Positions 11,558 through 22,699 of a stretch of DNA of 64,000 nucleotides are shown here, one piece after another. Location of the stretch: the NCBI GenBank assembly GCA_003554865.1, contig PWHJ01000025.1, positions 6,822 through 70,821 on the forward strand, read 5' to 3'. The notes below the pieces were generated by a model. It ran no database searches. It saw nothing but the letters and a program-made list of their open reading frames with translations, and was not told the DNA's origin. The first letter of the stretch is position 1. Every line of letters begins with the position of its first letter. The position numbers and the translations under genes were made by a program. The stretch comes from Bacteroidota bacterium (lineage in GTDB: Bacteria > Bacteroidota > Bacteroidia > Bacteroidales > PUMT01).

Positions 11558-14200
11558 TTACTGTTTCATTTTTTTCAGTGAATTTAGCTTTTCCTCCATC
11601 AGTTTCAGCTTGTTTTCGGCATCTTCCTTCTTTTTCTTTTCCTGGCTGACCACCTTTTCAGGTGCATTTTCAATAAAACGCTTATTTTCCAGCTTTTTCA
11701 TCACCGACTCCAGGAAACCTCTTGTATAGGTGATCTCTTTTTCTACTTTTTCTATTTCTTTACCTACATCAATCTCCTCAGCAAGGGGGACAAAAAATTC
11801 GGTAGTCCTGACCATAAATGAAAGGGCTCCCTCAGGCTTCTCTCCGGCGGGGGTGAACCCTGACAAGTTGCACATTTTGGAAATCACCTCCCGGGGCATT
11901 TTTAAAAACTCCTCTTCATCCATCCCGGCAAGAAGAGTAACAGGCTTTGCCTGAGGTATGTTATTTTCAACCCTGAGTGAACGAACCGATGTTATGATCT
12001 CCCTTGCAAAGTCAAACTGCCCTGTCAGTTCACTATCGACCTTCCCGGCCTCAGGCATCTGTGCAACCATTATACTCTCCCCGCTCTCCCTTCTATCCAT
12101 CAGTTGCCATATCTCCTCGGTTATAAAAGGTATAAAAGGATGAAGCAGCCTTAAGAGCTTGTCAAAGTACATCATTGTGGCATCATGTGTTTTTTTGTCG
12201 AGTGACTGACCGCGGGGAGGTTTTATTATTTCAAGATACCAGGAGGAAAAATCTTCCCAGAAAAGCCGGTACAGGGTCATTAGAACTTCGGAAAGACGGT
12301 AGGCGTCGGAGTTTTTGTTAACTTCCCCGATTGACCTGTTCAGGATGCTTGAGAACCACTCAACTGCTGCTTTGCGGTGTGCAGGCTGCGGTATGTATTC
12401 ATCGGCTTCCCAGCTTTTAACAAGCCGGAATGCATTCCATATCTTGTTTGAAAAATTTCGGCCCTGCTCGGTCAGGTTTTCATCAAAAAGTAAATCACCG
12501 CCGGCCGGAGAACAAAGCATCATGCCCACCCTTACACCATCGGCCCCGTATTTATTAATCAGCTCAAGAGGCTCAGGGGAATTCCCAAGGGATTTTGACA
12601 TTTTCTGACCAAATTTGTCCCTGACAATCCCGGTGAGATAAACGTTCTTAAAAGGCCTCTGACCGGCATACTCATATCCTGCCATTATCATGCGTGCAAC
12701 CCAGAAGAAAAGTATTTCGGGGGCCGTAACAAGATCATCTGTGGGATAATAGTATTTGTAATCGTTGTTTGAGGGGTTCCTTATACCGTCAAACACGGCT
12801 ATCGGCCATAACCAAGAAGAAAACCATGTATCTAGAACATCTTCATCCTGACGCAAATCAGAGGCTTTCAGGTTATTGTTGCCGGATATTTCAACCGCTT
12901 CAGAAAGGGCCTCCTCAGCCGTTCCGGCCACAACAAACTCATTGCTGCCGGGCAGGTACCAGGCGGGTATACGGTGGCCCCACCACAACTGACGGGAAAT
13001 GCACCAATCCTTTACATTTTCCATCCAGTGCCTGTATATATTTTTAAATTTTCCGGGGTGCAGCTTTATTGAATCATTCATTACATTTTCAAGAGCCGGC
13101 GCCGCCATCTCCTTCATACGGCAAAACCACTGCATAGAAAGCTTCGGCTCTATGGGTGCATCGGTACGCTCGGAAAAGCCGATCTTGTGAGTGTAATCTT
13201 CAACCTTAACAAGCCTGCCTTCATCCCTCAGGCGGGCAACAACTGCCTCACGTGCCTGAAAGCGGTCCATTCCCACGAAAACTTCCGCCTTTTCACTCAA
13301 TGTCCCATCTTCATTTAAAATGTCAATAACAGGCAGGTCATGGCGAATTCCTATCTCATAGTCATTAATATCATGGGCAGGGGTTATTTTCAAAGCCCCG
13401 GTTCCAAATTCCATATCTACATAATCATCTTCAATCAAGGGAACCTCACGTTCTACAACCGGTATGACAACCTTTACCCCCTTCATGCTCCTGTAGCGGG
13501 CGTCCCCGGGGTTTACGCAAACGGCCGTATCACCAAGGATTGTCTCCGGACGCGTAGTGGCAATAACAATACCCTCTTCCCTGCCTTTTACATCATAGTA
13601 TACATGGTATAATTTTGAGCTGACCTCCCTGTGGTTCACCTCCTCGTCAGAAAGGGCTGTCTTGGCCTGCGGATCCCAGTTAACCATTCTCACACCACGG
13701 TAAACGTAGCCTTTACGGTAAAGGTCAATGAACACATTAATAACACTCTCGGAATAACCCTCATCCATAGTAAAAACAGTACGCTCCCAGTCACACGAAG
13801 CACCCAGCTTTTTAAGCTGCTCCAGAATAATATCCCCGTGCTTGCGTCTCCACTCCCATGCATGCTCCAAAAACTCTTCCCGGGTGAGATCGTATTTGTT
13901 TATCCCCTCCTCTTTTAGTTTTGCAACAACACGGGCTTCAGTTGCAATGGAAGCATGATCCGTTCCCGGCACCCACAAGGCATTCCTGCCCATCATCCTG
14001 GCCCTGCGCACAAGTATATCCTGTATTGTATTATTGAGCATGTGCCCCATATGTAATACACCCGTAACATTGGGAGGAGGAATAACCACGGTATAAGGTT
14101 CCCTTTCATCTGGCTCCGACCTGAAAAGACCGTGCTCAAGCCAGTAATTGTACCATTTTTTTTCCGTTTTACCGGGATCGTACTTTGAGGAAATCTCCAT
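11558..14200 (-). CDS. valS: Valine--tRNA ligase
   Basis: [13 protein letters not shown] (HIGH), [21 protein letters not shown]-terminal coiled coil. ATG at 14200 (MEISSKYDP). Confidence 0.98.
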
Positions 14201-14433
14201 TTTATCTCTTAATCTTTTTTGCATTTATAATAATACAGCTGCTGAAAGTCATTTCAGGTCAGCCGTATTCAAAATTTTGTAAAAATAAGCATTTTGACTT
14301 AATCCTCCATTGCAGATCAATTTTATAAATAAACCCGGATTTTAAATTAATACTAAAATGGCATTAAAAAATTTTATGACAATACCCTTCTTCAAATATG
14401 CCTTTCATCATTCTTTTATTTAACAATTAAAAT

Positions 14434-14441: not shown

Positions 14442-14503
14442 TATAATATTGTATGGAGATTCTCTCCCTGCAAAGGAATAATAACACAAAAAAACAAAAT
14501 ATT

Positions 14504-15703
14504 ATGCCACAGATCTCAGAAAAAGGAAAGTCAATGCCCCAGTCGCCAATAAGAAAGCTGGTGCCCTATGCAGAAGAAGCAAAACGAAAAGGACGTAAGA
14601 TCTATCACCTGAACATCGGTCAACCCGACATCCCTACTCCGGAAAATGCAATGAACGCCCTGCGCAACACACCGGTAAAAGTTGTGGAGTACAGCCATTC
14701 GGCGGGTAACGAATCCTACCGCCGCAAACTTGCCGAATATTACCGGAATATCGATATAAATGTTGATCACACGGAGATTATAATTACAGCCGGTGGTTCG
14801 GAAGCTATACTGTTCGGTTTAATGTCCTGCCTGAACCCGGGTGACGAGGTGATAGTGCCGGAGCCTTTTTATGCAAATTACAACGGATTTACAGTTACAG
14901 CGGGTGTAAAAATCGTGCCCGTCACATCCTGCATTGAAAACGGGTTTGCCCTTCCTCCTGTAGCGGAACTGGAAAAACTGATAAATCCCAAAACAAAAGG
15001 TATAATTATTTGCAATCCAAACAACCCTACCGGTTATCTCTACTCCCGGGAAGAAGTCGAACAACTTGGGGAGATCGTAAAAAAACACGACCTCTATTTG
15101 TTCTCCGATGAGGTTTACCGCGAATTTTGCTATGACGGCAACACCCATTTTTCGGTAATGCACATTAAGGGAGCGGAAGAAAATGTTGTGCTTGTGGATT
15201 CCATATCCAAACGTTACAGTGCTTGCGGGGTGCGGATAGGAGCCCTTGTAAGCAAAAACAGCGAGGTAATGGCAACAGCAATGAAATTTGCCCAGGCCAG
15301 GCTCAGTCCCCCTTCCCTTGGCCAGATAGTGGGTGAAGCCGCTCTTGATGTTCCGCAGGATTATTTCAACGAAATGGAGGATGAATATACAGGGCGCCGC
15401 AATCTTATGGTCGAGGCCCTCAACAACATGGAGGGGGTTGTCTGTCCCGTTCCCAGGGGTGCTTTTTACGCCACGGTTAAGCTGCCGGTTGATGACACCG
15501 ACAAATTTTCCCAATGGTTACTTTCAGATTTTGAGCACAACAATGAAACAGTAATGCTTGCCCCCGCTTCCGGGTTTTATTCAACACCGGGTTACGGGAA
15601 ACAGGAAGTGCGCATAGCCTACGTCCTTAACAAGGACGACCTTAAAAAGGCGATGGAATGCCTGGAGCTGGCATTGAAAAAATATCCGGGACGAACGGTT
15701 TGA
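14504..15703 (+). CDS. PLP-dependent class I/II aminotransferase (aspartate aminotransferase-like)
   Basis: LNIGQPD, CNPNNPTG, SDEVY, PLP-lysine motif SISKRYSACGVRIG. Likely start MPQIS at 14504. Confidence 0.92.
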   Translation: MPQISEKGKSMPQSPIRKLVPYAEEAKRKGRKIYHLNIGQPDIPTPENAMNALRNTPVKVVEYSHSAGNESYRRKLAEYYRNIDINVDHTEIIITAGGSEAILFGLMSCLNPGDEVIVPEPFYANYNGFTVTAGVKIVPVTSCIENGFALPPVAELEKLINPKTKGIIICNPNNPTGYLYSREEVEQLGEIVKKHDLYLFSDEVYREFCYDGNTHFSVMHIKGAEENVVLVDSISKRYSACGVRIGALVSKNSEVMATAMKFAQARLSPPSLGQIVGEAALDVPQDYFNEMEDEYTGRRNLMVEALNNMEGVVCPVPRGAFYATVKLPVDDTDKFSQWLLSDFEHNNETVMLAPASGFYSTPGYGKQEVRIAYVLNKDDLKKAMECLELALKKYPGRTV

Positions 15704-15756: not shown

Positions 15757-15787
15757 AAGGCCACCGTACCAGCCATGCGGTGGCCTT
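15757..15787. terminator. Hairpin between the convergent aminotransferase and TPS genes
   Basis: AAGGCCACCGT - 9 nt - GCGGTGGCCTT, abutting the TPS stop codon. Confidence 0.55.
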
Positions 15788-17975
15788 ATACTTTCAGCTT
15801 CCCGAGAAGCTCAACTGCTTCCTCTTGTTTATCAAGGACATAGTTGGCAGCAGTATGAACTTTGCCTACCCTGAAAGTAAAAGCATCCCGGGGGAGTGTG
15901 TGAAAAAGCAGCTCATCTGCCCATCCTGCGCCAATGGCCATAATGAAGTCATAATTTTTCATTGACAACCAGTGAAGAGCAATCTCACCCTTGTTTATTC
16001 CGGAATTGCTTATCTCTATCACTTTGTTCCCGTGAAGTACCTGTACATCAAGGTTGGAAGTAAGGTTCAAAAGGTGTTCGTTCACTTCACGGGCAAGAAA
16101 TTTAGATTGCTCAATGTCGGCCTTGTAATAATGCCAGGCCACAGAAAACTCCTTTTCCTCGACAAAGGAGCCCGGCAATCTGTCGGTATACATCTCCAGT
16201 ATATCAAGAACTTCTTCTTTCCATTCGACAGAAAGGGGCTTTAGCTGATACCACTCCTGCTGTGAGGCTTTTTTTATCCACGAGCCGTGCTCGGCTGTCA
16301 GGTTAACATTTATCCCTTTCAGCAAATATTCGAGATTATCCTTGCTCCTGCCGCTAAGGATCACAATATCGGTGTCGGGTTTGTCATTTATTTGCTGCAG
16401 GAGCTTCAACAATTCCGGGCGTGGTTTTGCTTTTGAAGGGTCACGGGAGAAGGGGACAAGTGTTCCGTCATAATTTACAAAGATTATCCTGTTGGCAGCC
16501 CCTTCATATTTTTCCATCAGGTTACCGGCCACTTCAGCTGTAAATCTCTTTTTTTTGAACGTGTGTTCAGAATCCCTCCTTATTTCGATCAGAGTATCCA
16601 CAAAATCCCCGGCCCATTTGGTAACATTATACCTTTTAAGGCGTTGCTGCATAATGGTATTTCGCCTTTTCTGCTCATCAAGGGGCACTTTGAGAGCCTC
16701 CAGGATAGCATCTGCTATTTCATCAATATTGTTGGAATTGATTATAATGGTTTCGCTCAGCTCTCTTGCCGCCCCGGCAAATTCGCTTATGATCAGAACA
16801 CCTTTTTTGTCGGACAGTGAAGCAACATACTCCTTGGCAATAAGGTTCATCCCATCCCTCAGCGGGGTAAGAAGAGCAACGTCACTCGAGCGGTACTGAG
16901 CAATAAGCTCTTCGTGGGGCAGTGAAGTAAACTGATATATAATAGGAATCCAGTCGACACTTCCGTAAGTGCCGTTAATATAACCCACAAGCTCATCCAG
17001 GTTCCTTTTTATTTTCTGGTACATATAAACCCCTGTGCGGGAGGGTACAACGATCATGTTCATACAAACCTTACCCTGCCACCCGGGATTTTCCTTTAAA
17101 AACATCTCAAAACCGAGCAGCCGGTTGATAATGCCCTTTGAATAATCAAGCCTGTCAACAGACAAAATGGTTTTCATATTATTCGAAGGAAGCTGTGACT
17201 TTTTCACCCTGCTTGTGTCCATGCCGTTGAATTTCTCAAAGTCAACTCCCATGGGAAATGTATCAACCCTCACCATCCTTCCCGGTAAAACAATCTTTCC
17301 CATATGATTGTCAATTCCCAGTATCCTGCGGACACAACCCAGGTAATACTGCGAATAATCATGTGTGTGAAACCCAACCAGGTCCGCCCCTGCCAGTCCT
17401 TCCAGTATCTCACTGCGGCTTTCCTTCGGCAGCAGCCTGTACATTTCAAAAGACGGAAAAGGAATATGGAGGAAAAAACCCACGGGGTTGTCAATTTTCT
17501 CCCTCAGCATACGGGGGAGCAGCATAAGATGGTAATCATGAACCCAAACAATATCATCCGGCTCTATTATTCTCAGCAGCTCATCGCGGAACAGGGCATT
17601 AACCTCCTTGTACTGATGCCAGTATTCGGTATCGAATTTAACATACGTGGGGAAATAATGAAATAAAGGCCATATGGTCCTGTTGCAAAAGCCAAGGTAT
17701 ACATTGTCCATCAACTGCTTTGACATAAAAACCGGAGATGCATTATGGTAATCTTTTACTTTGCCCCTTACAGTTTCCTCATCTTTTTTGGGTACGCTAA
17801 TGCCCGGCCATCCGACCCACTTATACTCCTTAATTGCCGAACCGGATTTCCCCAGTGAATCGAGAAAATCACTCAACCCGGAAACGAGTCCGCCGGCCCC
17901 TCTCTTTAGCGTGTATCCCTCCTTCTCCTTTGAAACTACTACCGGCAGACGGTTAGATACTATTATCAATCTCAT
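15786..17975 (-). CDS. Trehalose-6-phosphate synthase (GT20) fused to a degenerate trehalose-phosphatase (HAD IIB) domain
   Basis: OtsA motifs intact: SNRLP, GGLV, IWPLFHY, HDYHL, FLHIPFP, VDRLDYSKG, VPSR, RDGMNLIAKEY. C-terminal HAD domain reads FVNYDGTL / LSGR / NKG / IGAGWADE. Confidence 0.92.
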   Translation of the reverse strand: MRLIIVSNRLPVVVSKEKEGYTLKRGAGGLVSGLSDFLDSLGKSGSAIKEYKWVGWPGISVPKKDEETVRGKVKDYHNASPVFMSKQLMDNVYLGFCNRTIWPLFHYFPTYVKFDTEYWHQYKEVNALFRDELLRIIEPDDIVWVHDYHLMLLPRMLREKIDNPVGFFLHIPFPSFEMYRLLPKESRSEILEGLAGADLVGFHTHDYSQYYLGCVRRILGIDNHMGKIVLPGRMVRVDTFPMGVDFEKFNGMDTSRVKKSQLPSNNMKTILSVDRLDYSKGIINRLLGFEMFLKENPGWQGKVCMNMIVVPSRTGVYMYQKIKRNLDELVGYINGTYGSVDWIPIIYQFTSLPHEELIAQYRSSDVALLTPLRDGMNLIAKEYVASLSDKKGVLIISEFAGAARELSETIIINSNNIDEIADAILEALKVPLDEQKRRNTIMQQRLKRYNVTKWAGDFVDTLIEIRRDSEHTFKKKRFTAEVAGNLMEKYEGAANRIIFVNYDGTLVPFSRDPSKAKPRPELLKLLQQINDKPDTDIVILSGRSKDNLEYLLKGINVNLTAEHGSWIKKASQQEWYQLKPLSVEWKEEVLDILEMYTDRLPGSFVEEKEFSVAWHYYKADIEQSKFLAREVNEHLLNLTSNLDVQVLHGNKVIEISNSGINKGEIALHWLSMKNYDFIMAIGAGWADELLFHTLPRDAFTFRVGKVHTAANYVLDKQEEAVELLGKLKV

Positions 17976-17986
17976 GGTTTTTGCTT

Positions 17987-20383
17987 TTATAATTTGAACT
18001 GCTTTTTATTGCCGGTTTCGAACCTGAACTTTTCTCCCTTTACTCCTACACAGACCGGTTCGGCATAACCTTTGTCAAATTCGATCTCCAGTATCCTGTG
18101 ATCAATATAAAGCTTTATCCAGTGTCCGCGATAACGGACATAAAAAGAGACCGAATTAATGTCATCCGGAAGACAGGGGTTGAGCCATAATACATCATCC
18201 CTTATCTCCAGTCCCGAATAGCATCTTTGTATTATATCGGTTGTTCCTGCCATGGCCCCAAGATGGATACCCTCATGGGTAGTGCCTCCCTGTATATCTT
18301 TAAAATCGCTCATAAGGGCTCTTCTGAAATTTTTCCATGAGCGGTAGCGGTCGGAACGCGCAAAAACCCATGCATGAATAACCTGGCTCAATGTAGAGCC
18401 GTGAGATGTTATCTCCTGATAATAAGATATATTATCAGGAATAATATCCGGGTTGAACCTGTATCCCAGTTTATTGAATATAGCCTCAAGCTCTTCAGTT
18501 GAAAAAATATAAAAGAGCATAAGCACATCAGCCTGCTTGGTTGCCTTGTACCTGTTGGGAGTATCGTTTTCCTTCTCCAGTATCCTGTCCAGCCTCATTA
18601 TATTACCGTATTTTTTACGGTATTTTTCCCAGTCCAGATCCTCCAGGCTGCAAAAGCCTTCAAACTGCTCGATAATATTGCCCCCATTATAAAAGGGGAT
18701 AAACATCTTGCCTGTAATATCTTCCCATTTGTCAATATCTTCTTTTGTAAACCCGACTTTTTCAGCAACCTCCTCTACACATGAATCATCCAGCAACCTG
18801 CAAATCTCAAGTGCTTTTTGCATTACCCATACAGCCATAATATTTGTATAGGCATTATTGTTAAGACCCTGTGAATTGGAATCCGGATACTTTTCATGGT
18901 ACTCGTCGGGGCCCATAACGCCCATTATCTCATACCGGTCGCGCCTGGGGTTATAAGTGGCGATAGTGGACCAGAAAAGTGCAGTGGCACATATTATTTC
19001 GGCCCCGTAAGTTGTGAGAAAATCAATATCTCCCGTACTCTGGTAATAATGCCATACATTGTAGGGGATCGCTGCATTGATATGGCGCTGAAGTCTTGAA
19101 TTGTCTGGTATCCAGCGCCCAGATTTAGGGTTGAGATGTATCTCCTGTGTTTCTTCCCTTCCGTTGCTTCCGCTTTGCCAGGGATACATTGCTCCCCTGT
19201 ATCCGGCTTCCCTTGCAGCATGGTACGCCTCCGGCAATCTTCGGTAACGGTATAGCAGCAGTGAACGGGAAAGCTGGGGATTGTGAAGGTTTATAAACGG
19301 GAGTATATAAAGTTCATCCCAGAATATATGCCCCCTGTATGCCTCCCCGTGCCAGCCGCGTGCCGGAACCCCAATGTCGTAATCTATGCTGTTCTTTGAT
19401 ACAGTCTGATAAAGATGAAAAATATGCAGTCTCAGTATCAGCTGATCGCTGTTTGCAGAATTGAGCTTCATATCATTATAGCTCCATATCTGCGACCAGG
19501 CAGTACTTTGTTTTTCGGCTATATCAGAAAATGTTGCAAGCCGTTCTGTTTTTGTCAAAGCCTCAGTAAGTGGGTCGCTTATTGCAAAATCTCTTGAAGT
19601 ATAAATTGAAACAAGCTTTTCTATTCTGACCGGTTGAAGCCTGGAGCACTCGATTTTTATATCCTTTGCAATAAATCCCTCCCGCTGAAAAGTTTTCTGC
19701 GGAACATCGGCCTTTCTCTGGTTTATGTAAACATCTGTTTTGGCCGCCTGGGTCATCTGTATTTTGGACTGCTTGGAGCGGCTTATAAGGTAAACCGAGT
19801 TATCGTTAAAACTCCCCTTTTCTGTAACCTCTATATGATCCTGATTAAGGTCCCTGTAGCGCGCAACATTATTGTTAATTATGTTTCCGTCAATGCCGGA
19901 GCGGAGAGTAATTTCACCCGACCAGTTTTCGGGAATCAAAGTCCATTCCAGTCCACCAACATGATAATCATACATACTGACTATCCTGCGGCTGATAATG
20001 GATGTTACATTGCCTTCATCATCCCTTACCCTCATTTTACGCTCCAGTATCCCCTCCAGCATGTTAAGGGAAGTTATATGCCCGATCACATCCATTTTGC
20101 TGATATCCAGCCACTTTCTTTTTCCTATCTTAAAAGTAAGGTAAAGCCAATTAGGCCAGTTTACAAGATCCTCATTTTCCACCGTCCTGCCCTCTATTTC
20201 CGATTTCATACGATTGTAGCCTCCTGCAAGGTAAGTACCGGGGTAATTATACTCATTGTCGGGCACTTCCTCAAAAGCCCCCCTGGTTGCAAATACCCCG
20301 TTTCCAAGAGTGCACAACGCCTCCCTTAAAGAATGATTTTCCGAACTCCAGTCATCGTATCGCAATATCCAGTTGTTATCCAT
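17987..20383 (-). CDS. Glycoside hydrolase family 65 protein, trehalose-6-phosphate phosphorylase-like
   Basis: EALCTLGNG..TRG, PARGWHGEAYRGHIFWDE, catalytic GPDEYH, NNNAYTN, KQAD, HGSTLS and EGIHLGAMAG motifs. Confidence 0.9.
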   Translation of the reverse strand: MDNNWILRYDDWSSENHSLREALCTLGNGVFATRGAFEEVPDNEYNYPGTYLAGGYNRMKSEIEGRTVENEDLVNWPNWLYLTFKIGKRKWLDISKMDVIGHITSLNMLEGILERKMRVRDDEGNVTSIISRRIVSMYDYHVGGLEWTLIPENWSGEITLRSGIDGNIINNNVARYRDLNQDHIEVTEKGSFNDNSVYLISRSKQSKIQMTQAAKTDVYINQRKADVPQKTFQREGFIAKDIKIECSRLQPVRIEKLVSIYTSRDFAISDPLTEALTKTERLATFSDIAEKQSTAWSQIWSYNDMKLNSANSDQLILRLHIFHLYQTVSKNSIDYDIGVPARGWHGEAYRGHIFWDELYILPFINLHNPQLSRSLLLYRYRRLPEAYHAAREAGYRGAMYPWQSGSNGREETQEIHLNPKSGRWIPDNSRLQRHINAAIPYNVWHYYQSTGDIDFLTTYGAEIICATALFWSTIATYNPRRDRYEIMGVMGPDEYHEKYPDSNSQGLNNNAYTNIMAVWVMQKALEICRLLDDSCVEEVAEKVGFTKEDIDKWEDITGKMFIPFYNGGNIIEQFEGFCSLEDLDWEKYRKKYGNIMRLDRILEKENDTPNRYKATKQADVLMLFYIFSTEELEAIFNKLGYRFNPDIIPDNISYYQEITSHGSTLSQVIHAWVFARSDRYRSWKNFRRALMSDFKDIQGGTTHEGIHLGAMAGTTDIIQRCYSGLEIRDDVLWLNPCLPDDINSVSFYVRYRGHWIKLYIDHRILEIEFDKGYAEPVCVGVKGEKFRFETGNKKQFKL

Positions 20384-20540: not shown

Positions 20541-21458
20541 TCATTTGTTTTCGTTCACCTCAAGCTTAAGAGGGTCGATTTCTTCTCCCCAGTAAACGGT
20601 TGTATGGGGAAAGGGGATTTCTATATTCTCGCGGTCAAAAGCTTTTTTAAGTCTTCTGCGGTACTCCCTGCCGGTAAACCACTGCTCTATTGGCCTGGTC
20701 TTTATCCGGGCCCTTATTACCAGGGCGCTGTCGGCAAATTCGTTCAGACCGAAAATTTCAATCGGCTCAATGATCTTTTCAGCAAATTCAGGATCGGCTT
20801 TCAGCTCATCACCAACCTCTTTCATGATTTTCATTACCTTGTCAACATCCTCCTTGTATGCCACGCCTATATCAAGCACAATAGCCGACCACTGTTTTGT
20901 CATATTAGAGATTGAGTTAACTTTTCCATTCTGAAAAATGTGTACCACACCCGAGAGGTCGCGAAGGGTTATGGTCCGCAGCTCAATTTTTTCGACAAGT
21001 CCGCCGGTCCCGTTTATTATAGCCACATCCCCCACTCTTACCTGATCTTCCAGCAGCATAAAAAAACCGGAAATATAATCCCGCACCAGCTCCTGGGCGC
21101 CAAAACCCACGGCCAGTCCAACGATACCGGCACTTGCAAGAATCGGCCCGATCTCCACACCCACCTTAACCAGAACTATCATAATAAATACGGTCAAAAT
21201 TATAACCCTTGCCGTTCCGTTAACAATACCCATCAAAGTATTTATTCTTTTGCCGGCCTCTTCCTTATCGACACCCTCTTTTTCCGTGGCACGCCTTATC
21301 AGGGTTTTTTTTAGTTTCCCTATTGAAAAGCGGATTATGCGAAGCAGCACAAAAGTTGCAGCCACGGCTATTAAAAGTCCGGGCATCTGGTTAATTACCC
21401 AGCTTTTGAGATTTTCTGTTAAATCATTAAAAAAAGTAGTGTTAATTACCTCTTCCAT
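20541..21458 (-). CDS. Small-conductance mechanosensitive channel (MscS/YbiO family)
   Basis: TM helices with ASAGIVGLAVGFGAQELVRDYISGFF, VRVGDV, GLVEKIELRT, and C-terminal FDRENIEIPFP. Confidence 0.93.
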   Translation of the reverse strand: MEEVINTTFFNDLTENLKSWVINQMPGLLIAVAATFVLLRIIRFSIGKLKKTLIRRATEKEGVDKEEAGKRINTLMGIVNGTARVIILTVFIMIVLVKVGVEIGPILASAGIVGLAVGFGAQELVRDYISGFFMLLEDQVRVGDVAIINGTGGLVEKIELRTITLRDLSGVVHIFQNGKVNSISNMTKQWSAIVLDIGVAYKEDVDKVMKIMKEVGDELKADPEFAEKIIEPIEIFGLNEFADSALVIRARIKTRPIEQWFTGREYRRRLKKAFDRENIEIPFPHTTVYWGEEIDPLKLEVNENK

Positions 21459-21670
21459 AATTCAATTGATTTAAGTTTATTAATATACTCTTCCGGTAAA
21501 AGGATAAACCTTCCTTTCTCACTCTTTTCACTCTCAGGTTTTTCAATCATTTTATAATACTTGCAGGATTGAATTGATCAGATATTCCAATTTACCCCGA
21601 TGATTGTAAAATTAAATTTTTATAAATTTACAACTCATATTTGTTTTATCAACCAAAAACCAAAAGAGTC

Positions 21671-22699
21671 ATGAGAAGAAAATGGAATCATTTATCAGCA
21701 ATTATCTGCTGGCAGCTTATTAAAAGAGTGCCTGCAACCGCCGTTTTAATTACAGGTTTACTGATCTTTTCAGTCGCCTCAACAGATGCAGCAGCCCAGG
21801 GCGACAGGCTGCAGCCTCTTGAATACAACAAGGATCAGCTCGTTAAAATGGCTGTTCAGGGTGTAATCGGCGAGGCAAGAATGTCGTATCCTCCATACAG
21901 GATCGGTGCCGACGGTGAACTTCCGGTTGTACCCGGGACAGGAAGCATAACATATAATTTCCGCACAGGTGATTCGGCCGTTGATATGGCCGGTGACCAT
22001 ATAGAACCGGCCGTAACCCTTTATCACCCTAACGGGCGGGCCAGCTCAGAAAGCCGCGGACTTAACGTGCTCTCATGCATAGGCAACAAAGTAAAAGTTA
22101 TTTCCGGCGATGCAAAGGGTGAAACAGGTTATGTGATTGGAAAGCACGGAGGCTCCGAACATGTTATGGTTGACTTTGAAGATCCGGCAGTTTTTGACAA
22201 GCTGCTGCTGGGTGACAGAATGCATATATACGGCCTCGGTGTAGGAATGGAACTGACGAATGTTGAAGGGGTGAAAGCCATGAACATCAGTCCGAAGCTT
22301 ATTGAAGCCCTGACTGATGCCGGTATGGGGGTTACCCCTGAAGGGAAGCTTAAAATAGACGTTGCCGTTGAAATACCCGCCAAGATAATGGGATCCGGAC
22401 TGGGCAGCAATCATGCACACAGCGGCGATTACGACATACAGATGTTCGATGAGGAAGTAAATGAAAAATACGGACTGGATGAGCTGAGATTCGGTGACAT
22501 AGTGGCAATAATAAATGCTGACACAAGCTACGGGAGAATATATAAAACCGGAGCCGTTACCATAGGTGTTATAACTCACGGAAATAGTGCAGTTGCCGGT
22601 CACGGCCCGGGTGTAACAACCCTGTTTACTTCAACCGAAGGCAATATTGAAATTGAAAAAAACCCCCGCGCCAATCTGAAGCATCTGCTTTTAGAATAA
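21671..22699 (+). CDS. DUF4438 (TM1086-like) domain protein with N-terminal signal peptide
   Basis: Recognised motifs PGTGSITYN, GDHIEP, SCIGNKV.VISG, GKHGG, MGSGLG, GDYDI, LRFGDIVAI, AGHGPGVT. Hydrophobic leader ending AAA-Q. Confidence 0.75.
   Translation: MRRKWNHLSAIICWQLIKRVPATAVLITGLLIFSVASTDAAAQGDRLQPLEYNKDQLVKMAVQGVIGEARMSYPPYRIGADGELPVVPGTGSITYNFRTGDSAVDMAGDHIEPAVTLYHPNGRASSESRGLNVLSCIGNKVKVISGDAKGETGYVIGKHGGSEHVMVDFEDPAVFDKLLLGDRMHIYGLGVGMELTNVEGVKAMNISPKLIEALTDAGMGVTPEGKLKIDVAVEIPAKIMGSGLGSNHAHSGDYDIQMFDEEVNEKYGLDELRFGDIVAIINADTSYGRIYKTGAVTIGVITHGNSAVAGHGPGVTTLFTSTEGNIEIEKNPRANLKHLLLE

Follow-up and report, generated by a model that had tools for sequence, protein, structure and literature searches.

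Whether a protein that carries the names of both a synthase and a phosphatase can remove the phosphate from its own product is the question raised by one gene in the stretch of DNA analysed here, 64,000 nucleotides of contig PWHJ01000025.1 from a Bacteroidota bacterium (hereafter the window). The gene encodes a fusion of a GT20 trehalose-6-phosphate (T6P) synthase (TPS) domain to a HAD-IIB trehalose-phosphatase (TPP)-like domain, in which Asn501 stands at the position of the nucleophilic Asp; fusions of this kind are called Asn-type or N-type, and those with the canonical Asp are called D-type. The evidence below makes it likely that the TPP-like domain is a selectively maintained pseudo-phosphatase borne by a dedicated T6P synthase, with T6P dephosphorylated by a separate enzyme. 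The coordinates of the features discussed are collected in Table 1.

The open reading frame (ORF) runs without a stop or frameshift, and the TPP-like domain covers positions 1-233 of the 235 in the PF02358 profile, in agreement with the first-pass annotation of this stretch, which had described a full-length, unbroken domain. The replacements named there were also found: motif I reads NYDGTL where canonical fusions have DYDGTL, with Asp503 retained; motif IV reads GAGWADE for the canonical GDDxTDE, so that both Asp of the GDD are replaced and Asp687-Glu688 retained; and the cap sequences read WHYY and VIEIS, whereas SGR of motif II (541-543; S541, R543) and the Lys of motif III (Lys662 in INKG) are kept. 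By profile the protein would pass for a bifunctional fusion of both enzymes (TPSP), scoring 905.5 bits against a cut-off of 634 with the NCBIfam equivalog NF011071 over residues 1-727 of 729, and 116 bits against a cut-off of 68 with TIGR00685 over the TPP-like domain, to which the solved TPPs 5dxi, 5dxl, and 5dx9 also align (E-values 1e-28 to 1e-33). The match to the TPSP profile and the TPS residues are present, and the motif I nucleophile and motif IV acids are absent; likewise, the sequence and fold of the HAD-IIB core plus cap are recognizable, and the full catalytic tetrad of motifs I-IV is not. An AlphaFold2 model of the whole protein had a mean pLDDT (per-residue confidence) of 90.5 and a pTM (predicted TM-score) of 0.79, with 10-residue block means of 82-96 in the TPP-like part.

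To place these replacements, 117 full-length members of the N-type clade described below were compared with 112 canonical fusions, a set picked for Asp and GDD, so that those three columns are fixed by construction. In the clade, D501 was replaced by N and D684 by G in all 117 members, and D683 by A (104), S (12), or V (1). Position 686, T in 99 of the 112 canonical sequences, was S in 106 clade members, as was position 656, canonically R (55) or K (38). Position 617, R in 107 canonical sequences, was H (97), K (5), Y (3, the window protein having Y), D (3), or another residue (9), so that both cap changes reported by the first-pass annotation affect positions that are usually basic in canonical fusions. 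Other cap positions were relaxed: E606 was present in 109 of 112 canonical and 40 of 117 clade sequences, H615 in 107 and 82, respectively, and K608, invariant in the canonical set (112/112), was R in 79 and K in 36 clade members. The remaining phosphate-site residues were held almost without exception in the clade, with D503, S541, K662, and E688 in all 117 members, D687 in 116, R543 in 115, and T505 in 114, and K579 and W669 were conserved in the clade only. In the TPP of Brugia malayi, Mg2+ is held by Asp213, Asp215 (through its main chain), Asp424, and Asp428 (PMC4081830); by spacing, Asp424 would correspond to the first Asp of the GDD (Ala683 here) and Asp428 to Asp687. A mapping of the B. 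malayi cap residues Gln332, Lys334, Asp336, and Arg337 onto the E606/K608 region was tried and, being tentative only, was not used as evidence; the same paper describes sequence alignment of the cap as unreliable (PMC4081830).

The synthase half appears catalytically intact at every residue checked. The GG loop, the Arg-Lys pair, the glucose-6-phosphate (G6P)-binding Arg of PSR, and the Asp and Glu of RDGMNL..KE are all present; G28, G29, D277, K280, P311, S312, R313, D374, G375, N377, and E382 were invariant in an 80-row alignment of clade and canonical fusions, and R9, G28, G29, Y93, D147, R275, K280, S312, R313, D374, and E382 were each retained in 115-117 of the 117 clade members. Cryptococcus neoformans Tps1 needs each of K420, D514, E522, and the G6P-binding R453 for activity (PMC10054996), and R313 was mapped by hand to R453, both lying 33 residues past a Lys (K280 and K420, respectively). 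The domain matched Aspergillus fumigatus Tps1 (5hvm) with 408.6 bits, and its model superposed on Candida albicans Tps1 (5hvl) by Foldseek with a TM-score of 0.94, normalised to target length, and a root-mean-square deviation of 1.8 Å. The earlier proposal that the protein makes T6P and cannot dephosphorylate it is supported by these intact TPS residues together with the lost nucleophile and the two lost motif IV Asp, all of which are readings of sequence.

A database search with the TPP-like part matched 566 proteins (E ≤ 0.001), of which the best 120 (query included; 50-72% identical to the query within the domain) were aligned. All 120 had Asn at the nucleophile position, none had Asp at either motif IV position, and all read G-[A/S/V]-G, which answers the count of NxD and GAG variants that the first-pass annotation had proposed. 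Motifs were called by alignment here, regular expressions having missed 38 of 150 and 8 of 80 rows. Within the family to which the window's genome belongs (f1), a match at 53-74% identity was present in that genome and in 17 of the 19 relatives with whole genomes, and the Asn and Ala-Gly motifs were verified at loci of 16 family genomes. Fifteen loci in named genome records were 61-69% identical (12 labelled "Bacteroidales bacterium", two "Bacteroidetes bacterium", and one "Cloacimonadota"); 13 of these had N and G[AS]G, and the remaining two end before the domain. At ≤54% identity, by contrast, 60 of 65 loci had Asp and none had Asn, the other five having escaped the script; two of these were read by alignment, L119 as Asp with GDD and L146 as GDD alone. 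An order-level sample of 301 genomes gave a TPP-like match in 64, with the Asn type, after checking of the motifs, in three: the window's genome, another member of its family (G003), and one genome of a different family (G306, family f33).

In a FastTree phylogeny of 164 fusions, all 35 Asn-type rows formed one clade (support 100, stem 0.40), and the canonical paralogues of the family formed a separate one (support 100, stem 0.32); the rows nearest the Asn-type clade were canonical fusions of other lineages, in a quick tree whose deep forks are weakly resolved. Because the Asn-type rows form one clade, the Asn-type state appears to have arisen once and then to have been inherited, in mostly Bacteroidales proteins. 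The possibility that the N-type gene arose by recent duplication of the D-type gene resident in the family was considered and rejected, since the two fall in separate clades. A search of 1.84 billion representatives listed no representative of the N-type clade, its best match being 46% identical, and was used for canonical outgroups and for scattered, independently degenerate TPP domains. A few such domains were seen among 125 full-length representatives of 50% clusters, e.g., LLNYDGTL with GDGRSDE, and LLEAEGLF, and the cis phosphatase seems to have been lost several times independently. Degenerate TPP domains outside the clade were noted in P0139, P0145, P0149, P0153, P0161, P0164, P0181, P0188, P0228, P0231, P0245, and locus L066, and further motifs of this kind read FITYDGTL, and FLDYNGTL with GDEWSDE. 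The Cloacimonadota-labelled locus (L081, Candidatus Cloacimonadota) carries an Asn-type fusion 66% identical to that of the window, with no GH65 or TPP gene within 7 kb on either side; its placement there might reflect either misbinning or gene transfer.

The gene was present in ten public DNA runs (X1-X10), all labelled as metagenomes of salt or soda lakes and coming from three studies between 2012 and 2022; no RNA run was listed among those containing it. One of the ten is possibly the window's own source; the contigs of four others (X2, X3, X4, and X7, from three studies) were compared. The Asn501 codon was identical in all four, and the Ala683-Gly684 codons were identical in X2, X3, and X4, this position lying outside the coverage of X7, which is a strain variant (95-99% alike). 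The first-pass annotation had argued that several separate substitutions speak against a single sequencing error, and recurrence of the same codons in four other runs, with Asn in 120 of the 120 best homologues, bears this out; Asp codons, sought in the other runs as contrary evidence, were not seen at the covered codons.

Selection on the domain was assessed by the ratio of non-synonymous to synonymous rates (dN/dS, Nei-Gojobori). Of 14 pairs, dS was saturated in both domains in nine and in the TPP-like domain alone in two. The other three gave dN/dS in the TPP-like and TPS domains, respectively, of 0.165 and 0.058 (L006/L007, dS 0.39-0.50), 0.150 and 0.075 (L008/L009, dS 0.57-0.82), and 0.052 and 0.075 (L004/L005, dS about 1.5-1.7, near saturation). 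Differences between strains, taken from the contigs of the other runs, were nine synonymous and no non-synonymous in the TPP-like domain, three and one in the linker, and 20 and six in the TPS domain. The dN/dS check proposed for the HAD domain thus yielded 0.05-0.17, and neutral evolution was not observed; the predicted dead domain appears to be kept by purifying selection. Between the two genera of the family, the Asn-type paralogues were 62-68% identical in the TPS half and 55-59% in the TPP half, and the canonical paralogues 56-58% and 70-77%, respectively, a mirror image in which the dead-looking or less constrained half of each paralogue evolves faster and is still clearly constrained.

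The working phosphatase is predicted to be encoded in trans. In the window's genome, at 96% completeness, PF02358 matches two proteins and no more, the window fusion and a D-type TPSP paralogue on contig C85 whose TPP motifs are intact (FLDYDGTL, WHYR, VIEIK, and GDDWTDE). An N-type gene is present in 18 genomes of the family; 16 of them contain a D-type fusion as well, and one (G019) has another TPP-domain match. In the window's genus (three genomes), the TPS half of the D-type protein is the degenerate one: it reads G-[T/S/I]-F against an invariant GGL, N-A-G-F against Y-x-G-F, SEHTGAS against SEFAGAA, and P-A-[H/N/Y] against an invariant P-S-R, with loss of the G6P-binding Arg. This TPS-like half is nevertheless conserved, at 72% and 82% identity between species and a dN/dS of 0.067 at a dS of 1.6, and the D-type proteins of the sister genus retain GG and PSR, with SNK in place of SNR. 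In the window's genus, one fusion therefore looks TPS-positive and TPP-negative and the other TPS-negative and TPP-positive, as expected from reciprocal decay.

Outside the family, the predicted trans phosphatase is usually encoded two genes upstream of the fusion. In G306, a divergent MscS gene at the start of the cluster is followed by genes, head to tail, for a TreS-maltokinase (1092 aa), a beta-phosphoglucomutase (bPGM)-TPP fusion (545 aa; motifs DLDGVVT, FFLDYDGTL, and GDDITDE), a GH65 protein (811 aa, 64% identical to the window's GH65), and the Asn-type fusion (733 aa). Thirteen named Asn-type loci extend 1.3 kb or more upstream of the fusion; a GH65 gene 64-69% identical to that of the window lay directly upstream in 11 of them, and a bPGM-TPP gene came next in all nine loci that reach so far (L080, L082, L083, L085-L087, L089, L090, and L092), which have the G306 gene order; because the loci are related to one another and overlap in part with the earlier genome set, the counts are descriptive only. 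TPP motifs were canonical in all ten bPGM-TPP fusions (the nine loci and G306), and the bPGM motif DxDG was readable in nine, L080 being cut at its 5' end. At one locus of a metagenome-assembled genome labelled Actinomycetota (L144, 356-8719), a canonical TPSP (ALDYDGTL, GDDWTDE) was found near opposite-strand genes for a bPGM-TPP (42% identical) and a GH65 protein (51% identical), and the pair is therefore not confined to the Asn-type clade.

Under the reading favoured here, the window fusion would be a dedicated synthase that releases T6P, and its HAD domain, with a TPP-like fold, would be unable to form an aspartyl-phosphate or to hold Mg2+, because the nucleophile is Asn and the motif IV Asp pair is Ala-Gly. 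T6P would be converted to trehalose by a TPP in trans, namely the C85 paralogue in the window's genome and the bPGM-TPP fusion of the same cluster in most relatives; alternatively, it would probably be split or made by GH65 together with beta-phosphoglucomutase (T6P + Pi <-> beta-glucose-1-phosphate + G6P). As to what the domain now does, the favoured if tentative proposal is that it may bind a phosphosugar without turning it over and so tune either the synthase to which it is fused or the way T6P is partitioned. The phosphate-site residues and the Asn itself are invariant, which suggests binding of a phosphorylated ligand without turnover, as in a substrate trap, and the remodelled cap suggests a ligand or pose unlike that of a canonical TPP. 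That the domain is specifically a receptor for T6P or a pathway neighbour, coupling the synthase to a hub of T6P phosphorylase, beta-phosphoglucomutase, and trans TPP, is unlikely; if it held, Bacteroidales of soda lakes would sense T6P and partition it to trehalose, to hexose-phosphate recycling, or to synthesis independent of UDP-glucose, and would offer a genetically tractable bacterial counterpart of the control of plant and fungal T6P by non-catalytic TPP-like domains.

Several observations weigh against parts of this reading. The word "dead" draws on comparison with homologous enzymes that have been mutagenised. In one N-type genome (G008, 90% complete), no other TPP domain was found. 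The operon link is frequent and not universal, because two loci (L081 and L084) lack a GH65 neighbour and the N-type gene of the sister genus (g2) lies in an unrelated neighbourhood. Most dS values were saturated, leaving dN/dS usable for three pairs only, and the apparent conservation of the clade is inflated by its lower diversity relative to the canonical set. Finally, the relaxation or change of E606, K608, H615, and R617 argues against the canonical pose of T6P and weakens the idea of a T6P sensor.

In the yeast trehalose synthase complex, a scaffold role has been proposed for subunits and domains that do not catalyse, and the TPP-like domain could similarly be a pure docking site, without a ligand, that holds the synthase together with a real phosphatase (bPGM-TPP or D-type) or with GH65. 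Purifying selection in spite of lost catalysis would suit such a role, as would the conservation of both genus paralogues with their reciprocal dead domains (including the low dN/dS of the D-type TPS-like half) and the residues conserved in the clade only, such as K579 and W669; the TPSP of Thermoproteus tenax also requires a partner protein, by complex formation (PMC3634074). However, conservation is strictest at the phosphate site (N501, D503, S541, and K662, each in 117/117), which mere docking does not need, and the trans partner varies by lineage between bPGM-TPP and D-type, leaving no obvious single interface, so that docking without a ligand appears rather unlikely. A complex prediction of residues 480-729 with the full D-type paralogue scored 0.00 and was uninformative either way.

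The domain might yet hydrolyse T6P, or a different phosphoester, in a non-canonical way, with Asp503 as nucleophile or without metal, and the protein be bifunctional after all, but this is very improbable. Asp503, Thr505, Ser541, Arg543, Lys662, and Asp687 are indeed retained, and the NCBIfam "bifunctional" cut-off is exceeded, but replacement of Asp213, the nucleophile of the B. malayi enzyme, or of Asp215 leaves no detectable activity (PMC4081830), the Asn variant of a fungal TPP serves as an inactive substrate trap (PMC11997177), two Mg2+ carboxylates and the basic cap residue are gone as well, and canonical TPPs are encoded adjacently or elsewhere in the same genomes. Neutral decay is harder still to credit, even though catalysis can do without the cis domain where a TPP is encoded in trans: a functionless domain would not be expected to persist through 729 amino acids without a stop or frameshift, matching its profile end to end, nor to carry identical replacements in all of the best 120 of 566 homologues, down to 50% identity, with dN/dS well below 1 and nine synonymous to no non-synonymous strain differences. 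An assembly or sequencing artefact, given the same small credence, conflicts with the recurrence of the codons in four other runs. The maintained pseudo-phosphatase on a dedicated synthase is therefore preferred.

In function, such an arrangement would be equivalent to that of plant class I TPS proteins or of yeast Tps1 and Tps2; phylogenetically, it appears to be a separate bacterial invention within the prokaryotic TPSPs. Plant class I TPS of the AtTPS1 type, like other eukaryotic TPS-only fusions, also joins an active GT20 domain to a C-terminal TPP-like domain that has no phosphatase activity and leaves that reaction to separate TPPs. The origins are nonetheless independent, the N-type clade nesting among prokaryotic fusions, and whereas the motifs of the plant TPP-like domains show general erosion, those of the N-type HAD domain are nearly complete with fixed replacements (D to N, DD to AG, R to H/Y, and K/R to S). 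The yeast trehalose synthase complex consists of Tps1, Tps2, and Tsl1/Tps3, a composition also given elsewhere (PMC3634074). It resembles the window's genome in splitting labour between paralogues with dead domains, the D-type protein, whose TPS-like half is degenerate and whose TPP is intact, being like Tps2; the putative partners in the window's genome differ in that each is a complete TPS-TPP fusion and a single bacterium encodes both. The query TPS domain matched 5dxf, an entry named trehalose-6-phosphate phosphatase, with 231.1 bits; the structure of the CaTps2 N-terminal domain, written 5XDF in the source, was taken to be this entry (PMC10054996). The TPP-like domain matched 5hus, a "trehalose synthase regulatory protein", with 39.1 bits.

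The closest relatives in architecture and family, by NF011071 and by the tree, are prokaryotic TPSPs such as those of Cytophaga hutchinsonii and T. tenax. These have complete TPP motifs and are bifunctional, the T. tenax enzyme needing an activator glycosyltransferase, and its gene shares an operon with a mechanosensitive channel (PMC3634074); the N-type protein differs in having neither the nucleophile nor the GDD. The characterised prokaryotic fusions that came up in the literature searched were bifunctional (PMC3634074), and none of that literature was found to describe a bacterial TPSP whose TPP domain is dead. The motif I of the window protein, NYDGTL, is identical to that of an engineered enzyme, the D24N variant of C. 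neoformans Tps2PD (5DX9), which was crystallised with T6P bound and retains GDD and Mg2+ (PMC11997177). That mutant kept its canonical cap, however, whereas the natural protein has also lost the motif IV Asp pair and the basic cap residue. The neighbouring GH65 protein resembles T6P-acting GH65 enzymes and recalls the Lactococcus-type pathway of T6P phosphorylase (GH65, EC 2.4.1.216) and beta-phosphoglucomutase; in the clusters of relatives, TPP or GH65 is found fused to a beta-PGM-like HAD domain. In Lactococcus, T6P derives from uptake by the phosphotransferase system, whereas in the window's genome the synthase itself is the only source in evidence. Another comparison is OtsB1 of Mycobacterium tuberculosis, which contains a GH65 part. 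OtsB1 is described as a large homologue of TPP that lacks TPP activity and whose function is unknown (PMC11046441).

A synthase that has lost its attached phosphatase is unsurprising in principle, yet the case is sharply defined, widespread in one lineage, and set in an unusual T6P-centred cluster. At least 119 other database proteins have the dead motifs. Among the 120 matches listed, 28 rows have a name, and apart from one uninformative label these names read "bifunctional ... synthase/trehalose-phosphatase", "trehalose 6-phosphate synthase/phosphatase", or "trehalose-phosphatase, partial"; because the window protein passes the profile cut-off without having the motif I nucleophile and motif IV acids, "bifunctional" names are misleading, and pathway reconstructions that count N-type proteins as TPP would be wrong wherever a trans TPP is absent. 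The role of non-catalytic TPP-like domains in plant class I TPS and in fungal regulatory subunits is unsettled, and bacteria would have reached the same solution independently, here with sharp replacements, strong selection, and a compact cluster (synthase, GH65, bPGM-TPP, TreS-Mak, and MscS) that make binding, regulation, and complex formation testable.

Table 1. Location of the fusion gene, its motifs, and associated genes (window positions unless a locus is named).
Feature	Location	Strand	Basis
N-type TPS-TPP fusion gene, 729 aa	15786..17975	(-)	ORF list, Pfam GT20 + Trehalose_PPase, NF011071
GT20 T6P synthase domain, residues 2-462	16590..17972	(-)	Pfam, 464.6 bits
HAD-IIB trehalose-phosphatase-like domain, residues 499-716	15828..16481	(-)	PF02358 Trehalose_PPase, 148.4 bits
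Motif I FVNYDGTL, residues 499-506; Asn501 (AAT, 16473-16475) at nucleophile position	16458..16481	(-)	sequence
Motif IV IGAGWADE, residues 681-688; Ala683-Gly684 (GCA GGA, 15924-15929)	15912..15935	(-)	sequence
Cap position Tyr617 (TAC) in WHYY, residues 614-617; canonical Arg	16125..16127	(-)	sequence
Cap position Ser656 (AGC) in VIEIS, residues 652-656; canonical Arg/Lys	16008..16010	(-)	sequence
Terminator-like hairpin just 3' of fusion stop codon	15759..15774	(-)	consensus scan, pattern match only
GH65, 798 aa, 11 bases upstream of fusion	17987..20383	(-)	all three GH65 domains in Pfam
MscS-type mechanosensitive channel, upstream of GH65	20541..21458	(-)	Pfam PF21082, PF00924, PF21088
D-type TPSP paralogue, 735 aa	L033 (G000 contig C85) 8242..10500, likely start 10449	(-)	PF02358
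807-aa ORF beside D-type paralogue	L033 10674-13097	(+)	bPGM-like HAD + GH65 N-/C-terminal domains, no catalytic-domain match
PRK/uridine-kinase-family P-loop kinase	L033 13123-13884	(+)	family match, after 807-aa ORF
G306 cluster: MscS / TreS-maltokinase / bPGM-TPP / GH65 / Asn-type fusion	L079 (contig C76) 155-10932		

In the window, the GH65 gene is probably co-transcribed with the fusion. Its best solved relative was 9lb6, "Trehalose-6-phosphate hydrolase" (457.3 bits), followed by the kojibiose phosphorylase 3wiq (370.8 bits); no paper on entry 9lb6 was found in a search directed at T6P phosphorylase and GH65 topics, not at the entry code. In the kojibiose phosphorylase CsKP, the phosphate site is formed by K330, S631, S632, and H675 (PMC11442529); an alignment to CsKP, read by hand, gave Arg, Ser-Thr, and His at these positions, with Thr for the second Ser as in 9lb6. 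De Beul et al. defined six specificity positions (CsKP 64, 392, 394, 402, 416, and 585) that read DQGQDE in T6P phosphorylase, TRIGPP in trehalose phosphorylase, and EEAPxx in kojibiose phosphorylase (PMC8537180). The window protein, again by hand, has D, Q, G, Q, W or D, and E, five of the six being clear and the fifth lying in an ambiguous loop, and it is probably of the phosphorylase type with a T6P-phosphorylase-like signature. It contains the sole intact GH65 catalytic domain found in the window's genome, in which no GH37 trehalase was found and beta-PGM-like matches fell below the family cut-off. The MscS gene, together with the salt- and soda-lake labels of the runs, would suit an osmotic-stress module.

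Beside the D-type paralogue, the 807-aa ORF is a decayed counterpart (42-44% identical) of a bPGM-GH65 fusion of the sister genus, which is intact (1057-1060 aa; L038 and L041), occupies the same place, and has the same T6P-phosphorylase-like residues; that the PRK-family kinase following it is a sugar kinase feeding T6P is a guess. On the flanks of the trehalose genes in the window lie genes for a DUF4438 protein (21641-22699, +) and a class I/II aminotransferase (14453-15703, +) and an 888-aa ORF (11558-14224, -) taken by eye from its translation for valyl-tRNA synthetase, all three of them without an evident link to the trehalose genes.

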